From sequence record PZ212788.1: 64,000 nt of DNA; one strand, 5' to 3'. The DNA comes from a phage. The notes under the pieces are model-generated. The model was given only the letters and a program-made list of their open reading frames with translations. It made no database searches and had not been told where the DNA came from. Numbering within the stretch: position 1 is the stretch's first letter; the number at the start of each line of letters is the position of its first letter. A program made the translations under genes and the position numbers. Positions 30,614-60,207 of this stretch are shown here, piece after piece.

Positions 30614-32095
30614 TTACTTAGCGTACTCGATTAATTCCACAGTTTTACCAAAGCTAGGGATATAATTTTTATTATACCCTTCGGTGAGAACCCATAAAGT
30701 ATCGTACTTTTTCCACCTGTTGTCAACAGCCTTTTGTTCAAAGTTATGCTCAAAGTATAGGTCGGTCAGGACGATGACATCTTTTGCATTTGGTATGTTG
30801 GCATCCAGATACTCGAACACGCAAGCAGCTGTTGTGCCCCATGTTGAGTGGACCTCATAGTTGATCATCTCGTCTATGTTGCCGCGAGTATATACTTTAA
30901 CCTCTCCGACTTCAGTTGACCAACAGAACATTGTAACCTTAAACTCTTTATACAGGTTGCACAATCCGGTGATTTCATTGAACATTTTCTTTAAAGTTCT
31001 TTGAGAGATCGAGCCAGAAACGTCTAAAGCCACCACAATATCTATAGTGTTTTCCGGATTACGACCCGGAACAATAACGTGTTGGTTCTTGTTTATAGCT
31101 CCAACTTTTCGCATTGTGCTGGTCAAAGACCCAGATCGGCGACCAGGTTTTCTGTAGGTCAGTTCGGCCTTTCGTTTAGACAACATGCGTTGCTTGATGA
31201 TGTCTATATAATTGATTACAGGCTTACCTCTGTTCTTGACAAACTCACGAACCGCCTCAGGGCAACGACCTCCGGAAGCTTGCATTGCTGCCTCCAGCAT
31301 GTCACCAGAGTCCTGCATGGCCTGATCTTTATCAGATTGGCTGATTACAGGTTGTGGCTGATCATACCCCATAGCCTTTCCAAGATCATCACTAGTGCCA
31401 CCGTTCCCACTCATGTGATCATCGGTTTGTCGCTTATCACCTTGAAAGTTCTCACCTTTACCGTTCTTACTTTTACCGTTATTTTGATCTCTTTGCTTAT
31501 CAAGAACTGCATAAACGTTCTCAGCAATCCATCCATGAAACTTCATGTCGCAGTAGCAGCTGGCTAAGAAGCCAAAAGGCTTACCTTTTACGAACGTAGT
31601 GCTTTTCCCTTTTGGGAAGAAAACACAAGGAGGCTTGCTAAAGTCAACCACAAGGCCTGTGTTGATGACGTGATCACAAGCAATGTTGAACAGTTCCGGT
31701 TCAAAGCTTTTACCACGGACCAGGTGATCACAGATAATATGCCCCACCTCATGTGACAGAAGAAAGGCCACCTCTTTCACAGATTTGGGGGAATAGAAAA
31801 CCTCAGCCATCTCAAACTGCTCGTCAGTTAGAGAAGCCTTAAGAATAGCCTTGCGTTCATCAGCCAACCCCATAATGAACTCAGGACTGTAATAGATGCG
31901 TTTATGGTCGGTTGCCATGGTGGAGCACCATGTGTGGTTTTCTACGAACTGCAACCCTGACAGTAGTGTGCCATAAAACGGCAGCTTTTCAAGGAGATAC
32001 ATACGTGCAGCCTGCAACATTCTCAGGGCATCATCTTTCTGTGAGGCAATGATTTCTGAACTTCTGCTATCCATTAAAACTCCAGAAGGGGACAA
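30614..32095 (-). CDS. vWA-domain protein with N-terminal putative metallopeptidase domain (DUF2201-like, 493 aa)
   Basis: HExxH-type HEVGHIICDH in N-terminal half; MIDAS-type DIVVALDVSGSIS in C-terminal half. Confidence 0.65.
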   Translation of the reverse strand: MSPSGVLMDSRSSEIIASQKDDALRMLQAARMYLLEKLPFYGTLLSGLQFVENHTWCSTMATDHKRIYYSPEFIMGLADERKAILKASLTDEQFEMAEVFYSPKSVKEVAFLLSHEVGHIICDHLVRGKSFEPELFNIACDHVINTGLVVDFSKPPCVFFPKGKSTTFVKGKPFGFLASCYCDMKFHGWIAENVYAVLDKQRDQNNGKSKNGKGENFQGDKRQTDDHMSGNGGTSDDLGKAMGYDQPQPVISQSDKDQAMQDSGDMLEAAMQASGGRCPEAVREFVKNRGKPVINYIDIIKQRMLSKRKAELTYRKPGRRSGSLTSTMRKVGAINKNQHVIVPGRNPENTIDIVVALDVSGSISQRTLKKMFNEITGLCNLYKEFKVTMFCWSTEVGEVKVYTRGNIDEMINYEVHSTWGTTAACVFEYLDANIPNAKDVIVLTDLYFEHNFEQKAVDNRWKKYDTLWVLTEGYNKNYIPSFGKTVELIEYAK

Positions 32096-35456: not shown

Positions 35457-35726
35457 ATGTTATACCAGCAATATGAACTTCGTGCAGAAAAAGAGTTAAA
35501 TTTTGACAAAGATATTCACAGATATTATTATGGGAAAGTTAGAGGGCAAGCAAGAAAGTGTACTCCAACACTCTTTTATGCCAGCAGACGACTAGCGCCA
35601 GAAGAGGCAACAGCAGAAAGGGTTGCGTACAACTGGAGAGTCACGTATGATATTGACAGATTCGATGTGATATCTGTTTTGGAAAACTTTGAAAACACTT
35701 ACACACAAGTAGAGGACTTTTACTAA
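35457..35726 (+). CDS. Hypothetical protein (89 aa)
   Basis: RBS AAGGAG. Confidence 0.45.
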   Translation: MLYQQYELRAEKELNFDKDIHRYYYGKVRGQARKCTPTLFYASRRLAPEEATAERVAYNWRVTYDIDRFDVISVLENFENTYTQVEDFY

Positions 35727-36910
35727 TGTCAAGAAACGTATTCGAAAGTGGTCAAATCACTGTCCGTGAGTTGCCAGCTATTATTCAGTTTGCCCAACGT
35801 CATAGCCGATCTGTCCTAATTTTGGGACCAATGGGTGTGGGTAAAAGCCAGGTGATGAAGCAGATCGCTGATAATATGTTCGGTGAGCGAGATGACAACC
35901 TTGTTGACGTGCGACTGTCAGATAAAGATCCTGCCGACTTATCTGGGCTACCTATCCCTGTAGAAGCGGATGGAACTACACGTACAGTGTTTGCAATTCC
36001 AGAATTTTGGCCTGCGGATCCTGACTGGAGCGGAATTATCTTTCTGGATGAGCTCACTCATGCAGATAACTACCTGCAAAAGGTTGCAATGCAAATTATG
36101 CTTGACCACAAGTGCGGCACCTATGCATTCCCTAAGGGTTCTGTTTTTGTGGCTGCGGGTAACCGTTCTACAGATGGTGCGGTTCTTTCGGCGCTCGAAG
36201 CCCCTCTGGCTAACCGTTTTATCATTGTAGAGGTTACAAGCAATGCAGAGGTGTTTATTGAGGACTACGCATTCCTCAACGGGGTTCACTCCTCTGTAAT
36301 TGGGTATCTGAAAAGAGTTCCATCAGCTATTGATAATTATGAGGCTATGGCTGAGATTAATTGTCCATCTTTTGCCACACCACGATCTTGGGTTGCTGCA
36401 TCTGACATCTTGCACGATTTTGACAGCGGTATTATTTCTGACGCTATGGCCCGTGTTCTTCTGCAAGGTGCTATTGGTCACACTGCAGCGGTAGAGATCT
36501 GGACATACCACACCAAGAAACGCAATTTACCGGAAATCGGTCGGATTATGGCAGGTGGCTGCAAAGAATACGTAGGTCCTAAGCAGCCAGACATTTTGTG
36601 GATTCTTGGATCTGAAGGTTGTATCGCTATTCGTAATATGATGGAAAATGCAAGTATCTCAGACGAAGATCTTGTCAGCTGTGTGGCAAACTTCCTCGAT
36701 TTCCTTTGGGAAAACTTCAAGGACGAGAACCGAGATTTTGTATTCTCAGTCTTTATGGCGATGATGAAACCTAATGCCTTAGGAAATGCCTTGCTTATCG
36801 GTAAAGGGCGTGACAAGATTGTTGCTCAGCTGATCAAAGCATACCCAAACCTGATGAAGATTGTAAAAGAGTTTGGTGAAGAGTTTAGCGCCATTTTGGC
36901 TAAAGCTTAA
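35726..36910 (+). CDS. AAA+ ATPase, MoxR/CbbQ-like (AAA_5 type, 394 aa)
   Basis: Walker A GPMGVGKSQ, Walker B IIFLDELTHA, sensor region VFVAAGNRS. Confidence 0.7.
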   Translation: MSRNVFESGQITVRELPAIIQFAQRHSRSVLILGPMGVGKSQVMKQIADNMFGERDDNLVDVRLSDKDPADLSGLPIPVEADGTTRTVFAIPEFWPADPDWSGIIFLDELTHADNYLQKVAMQIMLDHKCGTYAFPKGSVFVAAGNRSTDGAVLSALEAPLANRFIIVEVTSNAEVFIEDYAFLNGVHSSVIGYLKRVPSAIDNYEAMAEINCPSFATPRSWVAASDILHDFDSGIISDAMARVLLQGAIGHTAAVEIWTYHTKKRNLPEIGRIMAGGCKEYVGPKQPDILWILGSEGCIAIRNMMENASISDEDLVSCVANFLDFLWENFKDENRDFVFSVFMAMMKPNALGNALLIGKGRDKIVAQLIKAYPNLMKIVKEFGEEFSAILAKA

Positions 36911-53271: not shown

Positions 53272-53640
53272 ATGGAACAAATGAACGATCAAGAGTCGGT
53301 TGCGATGAACGAGCAAGAACAACCTCAAGAATTTTTCTTAGGGTTAAGTAAAGATCAAGTGTCTCTTTTGCTAGTGCTTTCTTCTTTCATGGGAAGACTT
53401 CAGGAGCTCACACAACAACCGGAGGCTGAACAATTATTTCAGGCTCTGCGTGAAGAAGAAAAATATCGTCGTTTGGACTATGCCTTAGGTTGGGTAGCTC
53501 AACAACGAGATATGTTGATGGCCCTCTCTGGGACCACAAGTTTTGCAATGGGCCTGTTGGCTCAAGTTCAGGACAAATTAATTCAAGCAGGGTTTGCACA
53601 CACGGCAAACACTAACGAAGAACAAGGAGACAAAGAATGA
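53272..53640 (+). CDS. Hypothetical protein, Gln/Glu-rich N-terminus (122 aa)
   Basis: RBS GGAGA; start overlap ATGA with the next gene. Confidence 0.45.
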   Translation: MEQMNDQESVAMNEQEQPQEFFLGLSKDQVSLLLVLSSFMGRLQELTQQPEAEQLFQALREEEKYRRLDYALGWVAQQRDMLMALSGTTSFAMGLLAQVQDKLIQAGFAHTANTNEEQGDKE

Positions 53641-54908
53641 GCGTTATTCAACAATTCGCTAACCCGATGAATCCGCGTGAAACTGTTTTACTGGCTCACG
53701 GCATGATTAAACGCGTCAGCATCAAGCCTATCAAAGGTGCTGATCCTACAACAGGTATTAAAACCACTGTGTGGCAAGGTAAGAAAATTGAGTCCAGCCA
53801 CACCATCTCTTTACTGATTTCTGAACTGGATTCCTCTGATAACCTACTTCAAGGTGGTGAAGAAGTTTGGATCAGTATGGGCGATAAGCTGCTTAAACCG
53901 GGTCATCAAGACTCTGTCTCTGTTAAAATTGATGACAAGTGGGAAACCGTAACGCCAGGATGGATCGTAAATATCCCTTTGAAGGCAAACGAGCATAACG
54001 GTAAGACCTACTACAAAGGCTCACTGGCTAAGATGGTTAAGCTGGGTGCAGGAGAGGCTCCAGCAGCGACTCAGCAGCAAAAACAGCAACAAGGTGCACA
54101 ATCACAAGGCCAGAAGCAGAAACCTCAGCAGAATGCCAATCAGGACGTTTTACGCATCTATGGTGATGTGACTCAGATTGTTGGCAACGTGGTTACTGTT
54201 AATGACCACAAGATTGGCGAAGGTGCTATGGTTGTAACTGATGAGCAGCTTAAAGACCTGGTGGTAGGTGGTCGTGTTGCAGCCATTGTTGACAAAGACA
54301 CCGGAAACATTATCAGTGGTTTCAAAGCCTATCCTCCTAAGGCAGAGAACGGCACTCAAGGCTCTGGTGGCAAGCGTAAATCCTCTTACGACCCTATCGG
54401 TGTGGAGACGGGACATAGCATCAATGCGTTGCAGATCATCCTGGATCGCGGGTTTAAGGTAGACGACCCACTGGGCGTGGCTAAAACACTGCACGTAGTC
54501 ACCATTGAGCTTAAGAAAGAGTATGCTCAAGCCACCAACCGAACTGAAGATGAAGTAGGTGCCAGTGTCGGTAATGCGGTGTTGAACGCTTGTCGCCGTA
54601 TTGACAAGAAAACGAAAGTTGATGATTTTGCAGTGGCAATTACTGCAGAAGCAAAAGATGTCTTGACTAATCTAGCTGAGCCGTTGTACGATTGGATCAA
54701 GAACGGTGCTGAGTCCACTGACCATCAAGAACCTCAGGCTGCCAAACAGGAAGCAGCTCCACAGCAAAACACTGTAGACGCTCCTCCTGTAAATGATGGG
54801 GAAGATGACCCGATGGATCAGAATCCAGCACAGTATGACTTCTGTGATGACATACCTTTCGCTCCGGTGGGTTTGCAATATGGAAAAAGCAGAATCCACG
54901 CATTGTAA
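53637..54908 (+). CDS. Two-domain protein with Gln-rich linker and acidic SSB-tip-like motif; possible ssDNA-binding protein (423 aa)
   Basis: RBS GGAGA; linker [20 protein letters not shown]; near C-terminus [19 protein letters not shown] resembles the E. coli SSB tail DFDDDIPF; no enzymatic motif. Confidence 0.35.
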
Positions 54909-55503
54909 GAGGTGCATCAAGTGCGGAGAGGTGAAAAACCTCTCCGAGTTCTACAAACACCCAAAGATGTCTGACGGTCATCTTAATAAGTGCAAAGAGT
55001 GTTGCAAGAAGGCCAGCAGGGAGGCTGACAGGTTTTCCCACGACTCTTCAGAAAAAGGTGTAATACGCGTGCTGTACAAGGCTCAAAAGTGCAACAGCAA
55101 GCAAAGAGGCCACCCTCCTCCGACTTACACCAAAAAAGAGTTTAAGGAGTGGCTATACCTGAACGGTTACAAAGAGTTGTATGATCAGTGGGTAGCCAGC
55201 GGATACGACAAAAGGAAAAAGCCTTCTTGTGACAGGATAGATGATTTCAAAGGGTACTCTTTTGATAATATCCGTTTAACGACTTGGGGAGAAAATAAAG
55301 ACAAGCAGACGGAGGATATTCTGTTGCATAGAAGCACCAGCGGTAGACGGTGTAAAAATGTAAGAAGGCTGGACATGAATGGAAACGTTCTTAAAGAATG
55401 GGTATCCCACAATTCTTGTAGAAGAGAAACCGGAATATGTGTTGATTACTACATTCATGAAAAAATTCCAGCCCCCGATGGATACCTCTATGAATACTTT
55501 TAG
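54880..55503 (+). CDS. Zinc-finger / HNH-like endonuclease-like protein (207 aa)
   Basis: ATG 54880 overlaps the upstream gene by 29 nt; [10 protein letters not shown]...CKECCKK zinc finger; [25 protein letters not shown] resembles the HNH DHID...N motif with His replaced by Arg. Confidence 0.4.
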
Positions 55504-55518
55504 CACCTAACTAACATA

Positions 55519-55547
55519 GCCCTGCCCGAAAGGGTGGGGCATTTTTG
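55519..55547 (+). terminator. Rho-independent terminator
   Basis: GCCCTGCCC-GAAA-GGGTGGGGC stem-loop followed by ATTTTTG; same hairpin as at 44014. Confidence 0.75.
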
Positions 55548-55565
55548 TATAAGGAGATCTGAAAA

Positions 55566-55982
55566 ATGACATTAGAAGATATCATTGTTAAACCTGAGAA
55601 CTATGACCAATACAACCTGTCAACTCAATCTGTAGACCTTGGATGCGCCACAGTTAGTGCGTGGCTGGTTAACGGAAAAGAGCTGGACAAGTGCTTAGAA
55701 GCTCACATGTCTGTTAACAAGTTTCTGGATGAAAATACTCACTGGCTTGAGGGTGCAGGAGTATATGCTTCATGGTTGGAAAGTATGGGATTCGACTACC
55801 AATCTGAAGAAGGGTGGTGGAGCTATTTAGCTATCTGCCCAGAGACGCTGCAATGCTTCATGAAATATTCTGAAGATTTGGAGTACCGGGCGGTGGTTGA
55901 TAGTGCTATTGCCCGTTATAGCCGTAAACCTTTTTCCCACGACATTAAAACTGTGGAAGAGTTTGTTGAAGTTTTCTGTTGA
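55566..55982 (+). CDS. Hypothetical protein (138 aa)
   Basis: RBS AAGGAGA. Confidence 0.45.
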   Translation: MTLEDIIVKPENYDQYNLSTQSVDLGCATVSAWLVNGKELDKCLEAHMSVNKFLDENTHWLEGAGVYASWLESMGFDYQSEEGWWSYLAICPETLQCFMKYSEDLEYRAVVDSAIARYSRKPFSHDIKTVEEFVEVFC

Positions 55983-56008
55983 CACAGGTGGAAAGGTGTG
56001 CAATTATA
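55979..56008 (+). promoter_or_regulatory. Sigma70-type promoter
   Basis: -35 TTGACA overlapping the upstream stop, 17-18 nt spacer, -10-like AATTATAAC. Confidence 0.45.
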
Positions 56009-56078
56009 ACTTCATAGAACGGGAGGACGTGATGAACGAAGAAAACTGGGATGTATAACTAACAGGAGGCCACTGCCC

Positions 56079-56276
56079 ATGATTTATCGAATCCGTGTAA
56101 GAGAAGATGCACCAGGCTGTTACTTTGACTGGCGTGGGTGGTGGTTTCTCCACCCAATGGATGGACTCACAGATAGAATGCTGGATGCTGCCCTTTATAC
56201 AGATACCGACATAGAATATAATCTCTATCTGAAGGACGGTATAGATAACGGCCTGTTTGAAGCAATTCCTGTGTAA
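56079..56276 (+). CDS. Small hypothetical protein (65 aa)
   Basis: RBS CAGGAGG. Confidence 0.4.
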   Translation: MIYRIRVREDAPGCYFDWRGWWFLHPMDGLTDRMLDAALYTDTDIEYNLYLKDGIDNGLFEAIPV

Positions 56277-56344
56277 GAGACTGTGATAGCTATGTTTTAT
56301 GATCTTCCTGTAGCACCACCACCTGTTGAACCCGGAGAACTAAG

Positions 56345-56770
56345 ATGATCTATGAAATGCCAAAACTGATTCGTGACGATGCCCAAAACGCCCACACCTT
56401 TATCATGGGCAAGCGCATGGATATTATTTGTCATAAAGATTTCTGGGAAGGTAGTTACTTCACAGAATATTTTGGTAAACTGGATAATGGTCTGCTGATC
56501 CAGTTCTACACCGATGCGGAAAACAATATCTGCTGGGAGTTCGAAACTGAAGATATCCATAAACTTTTCACCTTCCTAGGTATTAAGGTTGAGGCCAAGT
56601 TTGAAGAAGGCGAGTGCGACGATTGTGGATTCTACGAGGTAACAGATTTCTATCTCCCAAGTGGTGAGAACCTTTACTATGAAAGCCACTTCGGCAACTC
56701 AAATATGCCACAAGGTTGGGATGAGTTTTTTGAAATTGCGGAAGAGGAGCTGACATACCGTGATTATTGA
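56345..56770 (+). CDS. Hypothetical protein translationally coupled to the Macro-like gene (141 aa)
   Basis: RBS GGAGAA; 3' end overlaps the GTG start of 56760. Confidence 0.45.
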   Translation: MIYEMPKLIRDDAQNAHTFIMGKRMDIICHKDFWEGSYFTEYFGKLDNGLLIQFYTDAENNICWEFETEDIHKLFTFLGIKVEAKFEEGECDDCGFYEVTDFYLPSGENLYYESHFGNSNMPQGWDEFFEIAEEELTYRDY

Positions 56771-57218
56771 TACTGTAGCGGGAGATTTAATCTCCCTTTT
56801 TAAGAGCGGTGCTGGTCACCTGATCCACGGTTGTAACTGCTTTCATACAATGGGTGCAGGCATAGCGAAAGATATTGCCCGTGAGTTCCCTCAAGCACTG
56901 GCAGCCGACAAAGAGACTGCCTATGGTAATCTGGACAAGCTGGGTATGTTTTCTTGTTGGGAGCATTTTGCCAAGAACAGGGTCGTATATGGAATCAACC
57001 TGTATACCCAGTTCTACCCAGGGCCCAATGCTGAATACTTCTCAATAATGAAAGGTTTTGAGCGAGTCAACGAGGTATTCAAAGGTGTGTCATTGCCGTT
57101 CTACATTCCTAAAATTGGATGCGGTATTGGCGGTCTAAAGTGGGAACATGTAGAAGATGTAATTAATCTTGCAACCACAGATATTGATGTGGTTGTAGTA
57201 GAGTACAAAAAGTGTTGA
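56760..57218 (+). CDS. Macro-domain-like protein (Macro_2 type), putative ADP-ribose binding or hydrolase
   Basis: Motif HLIHGCNCFHTMGAGIAKDIAREFP matches the N-C...MG.GIA...F.P signature of bacterial Macro_2 domains; second Gly-rich site KIGCGIGGL. Confidence 0.55.
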   Translation: MIIDTVAGDLISLFKSGAGHLIHGCNCFHTMGAGIAKDIAREFPQALAADKETAYGNLDKLGMFSCWEHFAKNRVVYGINLYTQFYPGPNAEYFSIMKGFERVNEVFKGVSLPFYIPKIGCGIGGLKWEHVEDVINLATTDIDVVVVEYKKC

Positions 57219-57243
57219 CGACCATCTTCTGAGGTGATATAGT
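57215..57243 (+). promoter_or_regulatory. Sigma70-type promoter
   Basis: -35 TTGACG overlapping the upstream stop, 17-nt spacer, -10 TATAGT. Confidence 0.6.
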
Positions 57244-57272
57244 TTCCACAACAACTAAGAGAGGAGAGCACT

Positions 57273-57443
57273 GTGGAGACTAAAATCTTAATTCTTGCTG
57301 TGGTAGATACAACCGAAGGAGCTATATTCGAATCTGCAGGGGGGTATTTCTACCTACCATACGGAAAAAGAACTTCCGAGCCAAGTAAAGATTCAATCCT
57401 CAAGGTGTTCCCGTGTGCTTTCTGGCTGGAGATTTTGGTATAA
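57273..57443 (+). CDS. Small protein (56 aa), below ORF-track cut-off
   Basis: GTG start with RBS GAGGAG 7 nt upstream; uninterrupted frame to TAA 57441-57443; fills promoter-to-gene gap. Confidence 0.25.
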   Translation: METKILILAVVDTTEGAIFESAGGYFYLPYGKRTSEPSKDSILKVFPCAFWLEILV

Positions 57444-57469
57444 GATTGCAGAGGATTTGGGAGAGAATT

Positions 57470-57664
57470 ATGAGAAACAAGAAAGAGCTTTACTCTGGTG
57501 AGTGGATCAACGATCAACAGGTGGGAGAGGTAACCTGCTTCCGATGTTTTACCAGGTACAATCTTAAAACTGCACCAAAAAGTGTTCCAAAGACTGATGG
57601 TTATTACATAAAAGAACCTCATTGCCCAAAATGTAAATGCCGATTATACTGGAGTAACCTGTAA
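57470..57664 (+). CDS. Small zinc-ribbon protein (64 aa)
   Basis: ATG 57470 with RBS GGGAGAGA; Cys pairs CFRC and CPKCKC. Confidence 0.45.
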   Translation: MRNKKELYSGEWINDQQVGEVTCFRCFTRYNLKTAPKSVPKTDGYYIKEPHCPKCKCRLYWSNL

Positions 57665-57668
57665 AAGA

Positions 57669-57696
57669 TTGACATCTGAAAACTGCAGTGTATAAT
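57669..57696 (+). promoter_or_regulatory. Sigma70-type promoter, near consensus
   Basis: -35 TTGACA, 16-nt spacer, -10 TATAAT. Confidence 0.7.
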
Positions 57697-57727
57697 ATAT
57701 GCATAAACTAACAGAGAGTGATGTATT

Positions 57728-57919
57728 ATGGTAATTTTTAACCGGGATGGTATCATAGTTAGACAGCACCCCTTCCTTGAATACTATCAAATTGAGCAAT
57801 GGTGCTACGGGGATTGCAGTCACTCCTACGGGCAAAGTTGGGGATATCGCACAGTTTTTGAATCAACAGATCTTGATAAAGTAAAACAGAAAGTTTTAGA
57901 ACTTCTTAACAACAAGTGA
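57728..57919 (+). CDS. Small hypothetical protein (63 aa)
   Basis: RBS GAGAGTG. Confidence 0.4.
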   Translation: MVIFNRDGIIVRQHPFLEYYQIEQWCYGDCSHSYGQSWGYRTVFESTDLDKVKQKVLELLNNK

Positions 57920-57929
57920 GTATCGTGCC

Positions 57930-58262
57930 ATGGTAACTTTGGAAAGACGTAAAGCTATCGCCGCCACACTGGCAGACATCTTTTGGGATTGCAACTTAAA
58001 AGATACCCGAAATTGTGGTGCATCTGTAGATGTATTATTCCCACGGCCTACTATTGTTGCAATGGGCAACCTGCTCGATGTGGTATATGGAGCATGGGAC
58101 AAGGAAGGTGGATTCTATATCTGGCAACCTGACTACGGGACTTGGAAAGAGGTTAGTGGTTCTTCGGACTTCACTCCTGCAGTGGCTAAAATGGATGGCT
58201 GGAAAATCTATGTCGGTAACGACATGGAACTGAAAGGCGAAATTGTTTACTGGTTACCTTAA
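57930..58262 (+). CDS. Hypothetical protein (110 aa)
   Basis: ORF in co-oriented early operon; weak RBS. Confidence 0.4.
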   Translation: MVTLERRKAIAATLADIFWDCNLKDTRNCGASVDVLFPRPTIVAMGNLLDVVYGAWDKEGGFYIWQPDYGTWKEVSGSSDFTPAVAKMDGWKIYVGNDMELKGEIVYWLP

Positions 58263-58283
58263 GAAAGTCCAGGAGATAAAGTT

Positions 58284-58529
58284 ATGAACAAAGGGTGGAC
58301 ATTTGTAGACGGCGTTAAAAACATGCCTCTAGGAAAGTATATTGTAGCCATGGCAGATGAGAATGGAAAGGTTGATTTCGGAGTTTGCGAGGTTGTTCTT
58401 GCAGGATCTGGTGACTATGCTCACAAAACTGGGATAATTAACGGTCATTTCTACTTTGATTACAACCCTGTTGTGGCGTATATGGCTATGCCAGAGTTCG
58501 AGCTCCCAAAGGAAGGTGCAGATGTTTAA
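58284..58529 (+). CDS. Small early protein, possible bipartite-motif family member (81 aa)
   Basis: RBS CAGGAGA; motif MPLGKYIVAMADENGKVDFGVCEV. Confidence 0.45.
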   Translation: MNKGWTFVDGVKNMPLGKYIVAMADENGKVDFGVCEVVLAGSGDYAHKTGIINGHFYFDYNPVVAYMAMPEFELPKEGADV

Positions 58530-58719
58530 GCTTAAATCTGCATGGAACATCGCTGTGGGGGACGAGATCCGTATCCCAGGTGGAAAGACCATTATGAAAA
58601 TATCTCGTATCGAGTACGAAGGTGATCGTGTATTTCATATCTTTGCAGAAGATGGTCGAGAGATTTATATACAGGCAGGATCTCACATCTATATTCGTAA
58701 GAAAGAGGAGGACAAATGA
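58522..58719 (+). CDS. Small hypothetical protein (65 aa)
   Basis: ATG 58522 with RBS AAGGAAGG, overlapping upstream stop; preferred over ORF-track 58456. Confidence 0.4.
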   Translation: MFKLKSAWNIAVGDEIRIPGGKTIMKISRIEYEGDRVFHIFAEDGREIYIQAGSHIYIRKKEEDK

Positions 58720-59045: not shown

Positions 59046-59074
59046 TACTTGAAAATTCCTGGCATATCAAGTAT
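59046..59074. repeat. Inverted repeat at the start of the noncoding region
   Basis: ATACTTGA ... TCAAGTAT arms separated by 13 nt, immediately after the last small gene. Confidence 0.4.
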
Positions 59075-59086
59075 AAGGGGGATTTC

Positions 59087-59181
59087 TAAAATGGATTTCC
59101 TCCTTTTGATATTTCACCGGGCTGGATATTTTAAAATTCTTAGAAAATCAGAAAATGGATCGAAAACTAAAATGGATTTTT
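59087..59181. repeat. Cluster of three AAAATGGAT(T/C) motif copies
   Basis: TAAAATGGATTT at 59087, GAAAATGGATCG at 59151, TAAAATGGATTTTT at 59168; a fourth copy at 59521. Confidence 0.5.
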
Positions 59182-59355
59182 CAGAGTAGGCGCGACAAGC
59201 TGAATAACTCATCCTATCGTTTGCACCATATTCCAGGCCACCATTATAGATTTCCCACACATGCTAACCTCTCTCTACTAGAACTTCCTCCACTTACCCT
59301 TGACCTTCTATGGTAACAATCTAACCGCTATCTTGAAGTTGCGGTGCAGCTTTCC

Positions 59356-59535
59356 AGGTACTCGATCTACTTTTCATTTCAGGGCTTGGATTTTCTGAAA
59401 ATTTTTCTCGATAAATTTCTCAGTACTCGATCTGTTTTTCGTTTTCTGAATCGGATTTTCTGGAAATCGTTCCGGCTCTCAACCTGAAATTTTTGGGGAC
59501 GAAATCGATTTTTCGTTTTCAGAAATGGATTTTTA
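59356..59535. repeat. Imperfect tandem direct repeats, about 65-bp period
   Basis: AGGTACTCGATCTACTTTTCATTTC (59356) versus CAGTACTCGATCTGTTTTTCGTTTTC (59421); GGATTTTCTGAAAAT (59388) versus GGATTTTCTGGAAAT (59453); partial third unit 59491-59513. Confidence 0.6.
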
Positions 59536-59649
59536 AAATTTCTATATGGGAATATTTTAGTGGATACTATTTTATAGTAAATTGTTACGGAGGGTAATTA
59601 GCGTGCTAATTAAATTTATTAAATGCGAGGAGTTCTCATTTAGAATTTT

Positions 59650-59666
59650 GAATGATAATCATTCTC
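59650..59666. promoter_or_regulatory. Fur-box-like motif, copy 1
   Basis: GAATGATAATCATTCTC matches the 3' two-thirds of the Fur consensus GATAATGATAATCATTATC at most positions. Confidence 0.3.
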
Positions 59667-59780
59667 GTTTGCAGAATAACGGGCAGGCCCGGTGATTGTC
59701 TCCCGGCCCCTGTTGCCCCGGCTTGTTATTATAGTATCACACAGGACAAAGAAAGCAAGGATTTTTTGCATAAATTTTTA

Positions 59781-59802
59781 AATGATAATGATAACCGTTC
59801 TC
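59781..59802. promoter_or_regulatory. Fur-box-like motif, copy 2
   Basis: AATGATAATGATAACCGTTCTC contains GATAATGATAACCGTTCTC, about 16 of 19 matches to the Fur consensus. Confidence 0.3.
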
Positions 59803-60207
59803 ATTTTATGCAGCGCCCATCCCCAGTGGTTGTCTCCCCCGTCACCGGTGCCTGCCGTCCTTTCGATAGGTATATTGTGCCACCTGGCGGGGCCGCTGTC
59901 AACACCTTTCAAAAAAAAAAAATTATAACCAGGTGCGCCCACTGCCAGGACCTGGCGGGGGAGAGTGAAAGCTTGCAAACCTGGTAGGGCTATGCTATAG
60001 GGTAGGCAACAACTGGAGAGGAGGTACAAAAATGAAAGGTAATATAATCCCCTGGAAAATGTAGCGACTAATGACGCTGAGGCTATCGCCATGGTTGAAA
60101 AGGCTATGGCGGGAGCGTTGGAACATAAAGAAGAGTACGAAAAAATGGTGGTTAACCTGGCGGGGGCGGCAGGTGGATTCTATCATAAAAATAATTTAAA
60201 ATAGTCG

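Follow-up and report, generated by a model that had tools for sequence, protein, structure and literature searches.

The described proteins closest to the gene studied here are phage macrodomains acting against the host DarTG2 system. In phage T4, tk.4 was the sole significant conditionally essential gene on a DarTG2 host in a HIDEN-SEQ screen, and a clean tk.4 knockout sensitised T4 to DarTG2; the gene was named adfM, for anti-DarT factor Macrodomain (preprint, 10.1101/2025.11.20.689424). The AdfM of PhiKZ (gp104) strips ADP-ribose from DarT2-modified TNTC DNA in vitro and neutralises DarT2 toxicity, and AdfM of the chimalliviruses (PhiKZ/PhiPA3) is needed on DarTG2 hosts (PMC13309987). A related activity is known from the cellular macrodomain SCO6735, which has Gln85 in place of the lysine, hydrolyses thymidine-linked ADP-ribose in DNA and confers protection from DarT; its Q85A mutant is inactive, and its authors proposed a water-mediated, lysine-independent mechanism (PMC9411070). 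Here we analysed a gene at 56760-57218 (+ strand) in a stretch of 64,000 nucleotides of phage DNA (sequence record PZ212788.1; hereafter the window), which belongs to the genome of an rV5-like coliphage of the genus Vequintavirus. The gene, called the macro gene below, encodes a stand-alone macrodomain of 152 residues, a predicted DNA ADP-ribosylglycohydrolase, and overlaps the end of a 141-residue gene of unassigned function (56345-56770, + strand; hereafter the partner gene). We give a probability of roughly 0.7 to the reading that the macro gene product is an AdfM-type counter-defence enzyme, most likely removing DarT2-installed ADP-ribose from thymidines of the phage DNA.

The family of the protein was examined by profile and structure comparison. 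A Pfam scan of the macro open reading frame (ORF) gave Macro (PF01661) above the cut-off (25.9 bits versus 22, E 1e-5), the match spanning only residues 22-53, which correspond to profile positions 1-32, and precomputed PF01661 matches are listed for most of its relatives. An alignment of 70 relatives (35-95% identity) was used as input for an AlphaFold2 (AF2) model, which reached a predicted local distance difference test score (pLDDT) of 96.5 and a predicted template modelling score (pTM) of 0.91. Comparison of this model with the PDB by Foldseek returned 162 chains at E <= 0.001, those listed being macrodomains except for a few designed hydrolases, and confirmed the three-layer alpha/beta/alpha macro fold. 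The best matches were TARG1, Poa1p, the DarG proteins of T. aquaticus and M. tuberculosis, the DarTG of T. africanus, SCO6735 and BT1257, with a probability of 1.00 and template modelling (TM) scores of 0.72-0.78, all of them from the ALC1-like class; TARG1 and Poa1p stood at the top (E 6e-10 and 3e-9, TM 0.71-0.75). The original prediction of a macro domain was borne out in this way, while its assignment to Macro_2 has to be replaced, as PF01661 was the sole Pfam hit and no match to Macro_2 was found in the scan at E <= 0.1.

When the family profile was searched against PDB sequences, E values of 3e-14 to 7e-14 were obtained for BT1257, SCO6735, M. tuberculosis DarG and TARG1. The DarG model was the top NCBIfam match (E 1.7e-12; the only other match had E 0.11) and the sole PADLOC match (E 1.4e-13). 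Against the DarG equivalog NF048014 the protein scored 47.3 bits and did not reach the cut-off of 250, T4 AdfM scoring 30.3, and it covered positions 4-144 of the 338 in this profile. It shares the macro fold with DarG (5M31/5M3E from T. aquaticus, 5M3I from M. tuberculosis, 7OMU from T. africanus; TM 0.75-0.78), but DarG has about 340 residues and a C-terminal DarT-binding domain that the 152-residue protein lacks. DarG is also part of a toxin-antitoxin operon, whereas the macro gene is phage-encoded with no adjacent darT, its neighbours being without a PADLOC, Pfam or NCBIfam match. From the sequence comparisons and the model, we confidently assign the product of ORF 56760-57218 to the predicted macrodomains of the ALC1-like (TARG1/DarG/SCO6735/Poa1p) class.

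Within this class, the protein is a homolog of T4 Tk.4. BLASTP aligned its residues 1-150 with residues 1-152 of Tk.4 at 39% identity (E 1e-43), and both proteins fall on positions 54-205 of the profile phrog_335. They are of similar size (152 and 155 residues), consist of a single domain and share the NLYTQF-PGPN-EY loop, in which Gln takes the catalytic position. Both genes belong to large lytic coliphages, in which they are accessory and non-essential. The genomic setting differs, since tk.4 lies between vs and tk.3 while the macro gene follows the acidic partner in a block of small genes, which is located 3' of a 423-residue gene labelled as a putative single-stranded DNA-binding protein in Escherichia phage JLBYU08. 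By tblastn, relatives of the macro protein were found in 2,831 phage records, including T4-like phages, where the gene sits beside vs and is named tk.4. A 69% identical copy in the Krischvirus JK32 occupies the locus of T4 tk.4, flanked by vs and tk, and the original rV5 record (DQ832317) already names the macro gene Tk.4. In GenBank and PHROG the family goes under the names 'phosphatase' or 'Poa1p-like'; the name 'phosphatase' traces to an old A1pp motif annotation and not to an assay of a phage protein. The macro gene is a further example of the known AdfM/Tk.4 type, and existing annotations call its product a macro-domain or Tk.4 protein.

The ADP-ribose-binding loops were then located on the alignments. 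Loop 1 comprises residues 20-44 (56817-56891, + strand; HLIHGCNCFHTMGAGIAKDIAREFP) and holds the near-invariant H23, the invariant N26 and the Gly-rich stretch M31-G32-A33-G34, according to the Pfam stretch, the 70-sequence alignment and the alignments to DarG, SCO6735 and TARG1; this is the very motif from which the original prediction had read an ADP-ribose-binding signature, and it does coincide with the binding loop. Loop 2, the diphosphate-binding loop, is G120-C-G-I-G-G125 (57117-57134, + strand). Among the 70 relatives, G32, G34, G120, G122 and G125 vary little or not at all, and N26 and Q84 do not vary. In the alignments both loops fall on their counterparts in DarG, TARG1 and SCO6735, indicating that the ADP-ribose-binding loops are present, and N26 aligns with N22 of DarG in the profile alignment.

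The residue at the catalytic position sets the protein apart from DarG and TARG1. Gln84 (codon at 57009-57011, + strand) aligns with the catalytic Gln85 of SCO6735, Lys80 of DarG and Lys84 of TARG1. In a pairwise alignment the catalytic Lys80 of M. tuberculosis DarG (PTK motif) fell on Gln84, and the profile alignment placed N-l-Y-t-Q of the macro protein on N-M-I-G-Q of SCO6735 (5E3B) and BT1257 (2FG1), N-F-P-T-K of DarG and L-I-T-K of TARG1. The catalytic lysine of DarG and TARG1 (K80/K84) is accordingly replaced by Gln84, and Asp125 of TARG1 by Gly124, leaving no Lys/Asp dyad; Poa1p has Ser at the position of Gln84. SCO6735 and BT1257, which are the best sequence matches of the profile in the PDB (E 3e-14 to 4e-14), likewise have Gln at this position and no Lys/Asp dyad. 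They differ from the macro protein in being cellular housekeeping or repair proteins rather than phage counter-defence proteins, and Val25 of SCO6735 corresponds to Gly24 of the macro protein. The mobile loop of SCO6735 is 5 residues longer than that of DarG/TARG1 and carries Lys89 and Lys94, which are implicated in DNA binding (PMC9411070), whereas the loop after Gln84 (FYPGPNAEY) contains no Lys and is 5-6 residues shorter than in 5E3B/2FG1 by the profile alignment, without counterparts of Lys89/Lys94. PhiKZ AdfM resembles the macro protein in being a stand-alone, DarG2-like macrodomain encoded by a lytic phage and in having the conserved loop-1 Asn, but it keeps the DarG-type lysine (K78), the macro protein having Gln84. 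It also differs in that the PhiKZ protein is imported into the phage nucleus. Vequintaviruses are not known to have such a nucleus.

Sequence alignment places the T4/rV5 AdfM branch with the Gln-type macrodomains, while PhiKZ AdfM keeps the lysine. By analogy with SCO6735, this suggests lysine-independent chemistry of the SCO6735 type in the T4/rV5 branch, in which Gln84 would have the catalytic role. The possibility that the loss of the lysine had left an inactive, binding-only macrodomain was rejected: the Gln is invariant in the family, SCO6735 needs its Gln, and T4 AdfM, with the same Gln, has a DarTG2 phenotype.

Based on these comparisons, the following course of events is proposed for the macro protein as an AdfM-type enzyme. 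The host toxin DarT2 would be released upon infection and would ADP-ribosylate thymidines in single-stranded phage DNA, so that replication is blocked. The macro protein would bind the ADP-ribose through loop 1 (H23, N26, G32-G34) and loop 2 (G120-G125) and hydrolyse the thymine-ribose bond, which would restore the DNA. Catalysis is expected to follow SCO6735, with Gln84 and an activated water, and not the lysine type of DarG/TARG1. We infer DarT2 as the target, thymidine-linked ADP-ribose as the substrate and the role of Gln84. The original prediction had offered, among other options, that the two overlapping genes together reverse DarT-type ADP-ribosylation of DNA; the reversal of DarT-type modification is the best supported of these options because the macro protein is a full-length homolog of T4 Tk.4/AdfM, while the idea of a functional pair fell, the two genes being unlinked outside Vequintavirus.

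Several points weigh against this assignment. The DarTG2 phenotypes come from T4 and PhiKZ/PhiPA3 and none from a Vequintavirus, and our literature search found no paper testing a Vequintavirus macrodomain or the partner family. The macro gene was not among the main-text hits of the HIDEN-SEQ screens of the Vequintavirus Bas54 on clinical isolates, and the T4 result comes from a preprint in which ADP-ribose removal by T4 AdfM was inferred (10.1101/2025.11.20.689424). The sole AdfM assayed in vitro, that of PhiKZ, is of the lysine type, with K78 (PMC13309987), and the identity between the macro protein and T4 Tk.4 is only 39%. The Gln-type precedents SCO6735 and BT1257 have the longer loop, of which Lys89 is important for DNA activity, while the loop of the macro protein is short and Lys-free. 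Furthermore, ALC1-like macrodomains also act on proteins and small ADP-ribose derivatives, and sequence alone cannot fix the substrate (PMC9503650).

The partner gene has a narrower distribution and no recognisable function. The original prediction had called it uncharacterised, which agrees with the searches: no match was obtained in Pfam, NCBIfam, PADLOC or the PHROG function categories, and its fold had no match in the PDB or BFVD. The protein has 31 Asp+Glu and 10 Lys+Arg (net charge -21, pI 4.2) and 19% aromatic residues, and the neighbouring small proteins are also acidic. It is predicted to be beta-rich and has a conserved core of C91-D-x-C94-G ... H115-F-G-N ... P122..W125.EFF. It was found in 177 phage records, namely Vequintaviruses and about 59 Krischviruses at 37% identity. 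In a search of 5.8 billion proteins, a word index gave 4 matches and a profile 8 clusters, and 18 matches came from an exhaustive hidden Markov model (HMM) search among 1.84 billion representatives. Of these, 5 eukaryotic repeat proteins (VWD/TIL, Ig, HA repeats, an F-box protein) were judged spurious.

Outside the genus Vequintavirus, the two genes are unlinked. Krischviruses have both, but with the partner immediately 5' of dam and the macro gene elsewhere, at the vs-tk.4-tk locus. In a 138-kb metagenomic contig (L007) the partner is 71% identical and has kept its syntenic place after the phrog_4477 gene (the 423-residue gene of the window), but other genes follow it and no macro homolog was found within 3 kb. 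Conversely, more than 2,600 phage records, T4 included, have the macro gene without the partner. The pairing of the two genes is thus lineage-specific to the genus Vequintavirus. Overlap with a neighbour is not peculiar to this pair, as T4 tk.4 overlaps both of its neighbours, vs and tk.3, and the macro gene of the Krischvirus JK32 overlaps a different downstream gene by 11 nucleotides. A functional pair on the ground of the overlap was therefore rejected, since overlapping junctions are common (6/17 same-strand junctions in the 9 kb around the pair, counted from the annotation of a relative) and the genes are unlinked in Krischvirus and contig L007.

The alternative readings of the macro protein itself concern its substrate. 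Its class includes Poa1p, and the leading rival, which we nevertheless consider unlikely, is that it acts on small soluble ADP-ribose derivatives, either as a Poa1p-like phosphatase (ADP-ribose-1''-phosphate, O-acetyl-ADP-ribose) or as a degrader of NAD-derived signals or toxic metabolites (Thoeris-type cyclic ADP-ribose isomers, ADPr-1''P). Poa1p (6LFQ-6LFU) is among the best sequence and fold matches, two of its residues that have been examined by mutation, H23 and S30, fall on H23 and T30 of the macro protein, the database labels 'phosphatase' and 'Poa1p-like' point the same way, and Iyer et al. have argued that low-molecular-weight ADP-ribose derivatives are the targets of most stand-alone phage macrodomains (PMC9503650). 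The original prediction had also named NAD-derived signals, an option that gained no positive evidence. However, the only known genetic phenotype of the family concerns DarTG2, which modifies DNA, and the invariant Gln84 is common to the DNA hydrolase SCO6735 and its structural homolog BT1257, while Poa1p has Ser; in addition, the scores of the DarG models are significant and the phosphatase name goes back to the motif annotation mentioned above. That the protein removes ADP-ribose from protein or RNA targets of other host defence ADP-ribosyltransferases (ARTs), with DNA as a secondary target or none, appears improbable. Systems of the CmdTAC type, which ADP-ribosylate mRNA, would be an example of such a defence. 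The top Foldseek match TARG1 (OARD1; 4J5R/4J5S) is a protein glutamate/aspartate ADP-ribosylhydrolase, and SCO6735 also acts on protein substrates (PMC9411070). Against this, the Lys84/Asp125 dyad of TARG1 is absent from the macro protein, with Q84 and G124 in its place, nothing links the AdfM family to protein or RNA targets, and the phenotype of the T4 homolog is specific to DarTG2. The known substrates of TARG1 and Poa1p, which share the ALC1-like class with the macro protein, are protein-linked or soluble ADP-ribose derivatives, and in this they differ from the DNA-linked substrate of the preferred AdfM-type reading.

Other readings give the partner a share in the function. In one, which we hold to be very unlikely, the two genes form a split DarG, the macro protein erasing the modification and the acidic partner blocking DarT by mimicry of single-stranded DNA, as do the C-terminal domain of DarG and AdfB of ICP1, with the overlap ensuring co-expression. 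The charge and pI of the partner would suit such a mimic, the overlap and junction are strictly conserved within the genus, and in Krischvirus the partner again stands beside a DNA-modification counter-defence gene, dam. Yet full-length DarG models gave no match to the partner at E <= 1, the partner fold found no counterpart although the DarTG complex 7omu is within the PDB collection, and the unlinked genes, the many records with the macro gene alone, the acidic small neighbours and the frequency of overlapping junctions all speak against it. A wider proposal, that the partner is a new DNA-mimic-like anti-defence binder, of a fold without known relatives, which makes up a split DarG analogue with the macro protein in Vequintaviruses and works beside Dam in Krischviruses, and that, separately, AdfM of the T4/rV5 type is a lysine-independent, short-loop catalytic variant of DNA ADP-ribosylglycohydrolase distinct from DarG and SCO6735, is in our estimate very unlikely. 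The least likely reading, and a highly improbable one, is a phage writer/eraser pair, which was also an option of the original prediction; here the partner or another phage gene would be an ADP-ribosyltransferase whose modification the macro protein reverses or limits, as might be imagined from Alt/ModA/ModB of T4. T4 has both ADP-ribosyltransferases (PMC9503650) and Tk.4, and the gene overlap had suggested a pair. The partner, however, is beta-rich, has only 141 residues and matches no ART motif or fold; its family has about a dozen representatives among 1.84 billion, while the macro family is very widespread. Moreover, a Pfam scan of 20 other mid-sized ORFs of the window, which left aside small ORFs, structural genes and the remaining 73 kb or so of the genome, detected neither an ART nor a NADAR domain. 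This claim is not supported. The partner itself was rejected as an ART, a DarT or a DarG C-terminal domain, having no Pfam, NCBIfam, PADLOC, PHROG-function or fold match. We regard it as a separate accessory gene that is not obligately tied to the macro gene. From its charge and its position beside counter-defence genes alone (adfM here, dam in Krischvirus), our guess is an independent acidic anti-defence or host-takeover factor.

The gene calls and the junction were examined at the nucleotide level. Both ORFs lie at the coordinates given in the original prediction, the partner with an ATG start, and the GTG start of the macro gene does overlap the end of the partner, by 11 nucleotides (56760-56770, + strand), the GTG lying 8 nucleotides 5' of the TGA stop within the last partner codons. 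The profile matches of the partner to phrog_8157 (E 4e-81) and of the macro protein to phrog_335 (E 1.4e-59) show that both ORFs are real genes and not chance ORFs. Sequence evidence indicates that the GTG start is correct, because residue 1 aligns with residue 1 of T4 Tk.4, and because the GenBank records of close relatives and the Bas54 gene table (HIDEN-SEQ supplement) call the same start. The next in-frame Met is M31, and a start there would truncate the ADP-ribose-binding loop. A Shine-Dalgarno sequence, GAGGAG, lies 10 nucleotides 5' of the GTG within the partner coding sequence (56744-56749, + strand), and the record of phage Murica annotates a ribosome-binding site at the matching position. 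An identical 11-nucleotide overlap appears in the annotations of JLBYU08, Murica, magaca and Bas54. Within the genus, the start/stop overlap and the junction show strict conservation, the junction being 98% identical among the relatives compared. The overlap, a candidate site of translational coupling, may couple the translation of the two genes, but it is ordinary phage gene packing that does not indicate a shared function.

A terminator-like hairpin with a 7-bp stem (GGGAGAT/ATCTCCC), a 3-nucleotide loop and a following T5 is located at 56780-56801 (+ strand), beginning 10 nucleotides past the partner stop, so that its stem forms codons 7-13 of the macro gene and its tail extends to codon 14. 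It is labelled a terminator in the Murica record and was also found by a terminator scan, which gave 3 such sites where 1.7 were expected; its fold z-score is -0.46, and it is fully conserved in relatives, hence there is no covariation signal to read. Its significance as a terminator is doubtful on these sequence grounds. Scans for tRNA and Rfam families near the locus found nothing.

The variation of the locus among relatives was further compared. Over the region 55500-58600, the window shares 99.3% identity with Escherichia phage JLBYU08 (Vequintavirus murica); in all, 122 phage records match this region, 113 of them at 90-99% identity. Sixteen matching records are named 'Campylobacter phage' (one that was checked is marked UNVERIFIED, and two are listed without annotation); two of those listed are about 96-97% identical to E. 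coli Vequintaviruses, and these host labels are probably wrong. Between the window and phages magaca (L008) and A147 (L009), the body of the macro gene (56860-57218) is 76-77% identical at the nucleotide level, whereas the partner and flanks are 89-100% identical and the sequence bordering the macro body is 95-100% identical (on both sides for magaca, upstream only for A147). This indicates two macro alleles in the genus, the body of the gene having been replaced or having diverged on its own, in agreement with the identity bands seen when the two proteins were searched against phage records. Most relatives carry a macro allele at 80-90% protein identity, and the allele pattern is consistent with exchange of the gene or its diversification under selection.

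Both genes can also be lost. Bas54 has the gene order of the window from bas54_0087 to bas54_0092, with the same overlap, and on E. coli K-12 its partner gene (bas54_0091) was disrupted at 21/23 TA sites and its macro gene (bas54_0092) at 31/31, both being scored non-essential, while the orthologue of the upstream 423-residue gene was scored essential (10.1101/2025.11.20.689424, supplement). A natural allele (P0004), on a 135.5-kb contig of Vequintavirus size that is otherwise full-length, joins residues 1-56 of the partner to residues 87-152 of the macro protein. The 10-nucleotide direct repeat CCAGTTCTAC is present in the window at 56500-56509 (+ strand), in the partner gene, and at 57008-57017 (+ strand), where it spans the Gln84 codon. 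The join in P0004 is an in-frame deletion of 508 bp between the repeats, which destroyed both genes and took out the N-terminal half of the macro protein including N26 and the residues up to Q84, and recombination between the two copies of CCAGTTCTAC explains this allele. The dispensability in Bas54 and the P0004 allele therefore fit accessory, condition-specific genes.

Upstream of the pair, an ORF for an HNH homing endonuclease (54793-55503, + strand; phrog_1035, E 4.5e-41) overlaps the 3' end of the 423-residue phrog_4477 gene (53637-54908) by 116 nucleotides. The closest relative, JLBYU08, lacks this ORF and has a phrog_4477 gene of 408 residues; the HNH insertion appears to have remodelled the C-terminus of this gene, which is essential in Bas54. 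A strong GC-rich terminator-like hairpin follows the HNH gene at 55519-55540. A metagenomic protein of 142 residues (P0132) has an N-terminus of this same HNH-endonuclease type joined to the conserved C-terminal half of the partner family, and homing endonucleases seem to invade the neighbourhood of the partner gene repeatedly. Downstream of the pair, an ORF of 83 residues (57413-57664, + strand) matches Pfam Phage_zn_bind_2 (E 1.6e-22) and phrog_4864; its true start is probably downstream of the listed GTG, because GenBank relatives annotate a shorter gene of 195 nucleotides. A perfect sigma-70 consensus (TTGACA, 16 nucleotides, TATAAT; 12/12) was found at 57669-57696 (+ strand), just 5' of ORF 57728-57919. 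The region from about 59050 to 60200 is ORF-poor, with short doubtful ORFs, and contains no tRNA and no Rfam family at the gathering threshold. Elsewhere in the window are a DUF2201 metallopeptidase/VWA-like protein (30614-32095, - strand) and an AAA-type ATPase (35726-36910, + strand). In Bas54, a MoxR ATPase (bas54_0063) is reported to be an anti-defence gene against the system DS-28 (10.1101/2025.11.20.689424).

The reversal of DarT by the AdfM family is already in the literature, where the T4 homolog has its name and phenotype, and the assignment will not surprise a specialist. The sole point that goes beyond the literature consulted is mechanistic, namely that AdfM of T4 and rV5 has an invariant Gln where DarG, TARG1 and PhiKZ AdfM have the catalytic lysine. 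The rV5-like phages are candidates for therapy. If the assignment is true, they would carry a ready-made countermeasure against DarTG2, which would help to predict their host range, known to be broad (10.1101/2025.11.20.689424), on E. coli strains with DarTG2. A further instance would also be at hand of large lytic phages routinely keeping orphan copies of antitoxin enzymes, AdfN against DarT1 and AdfM against DarT2.

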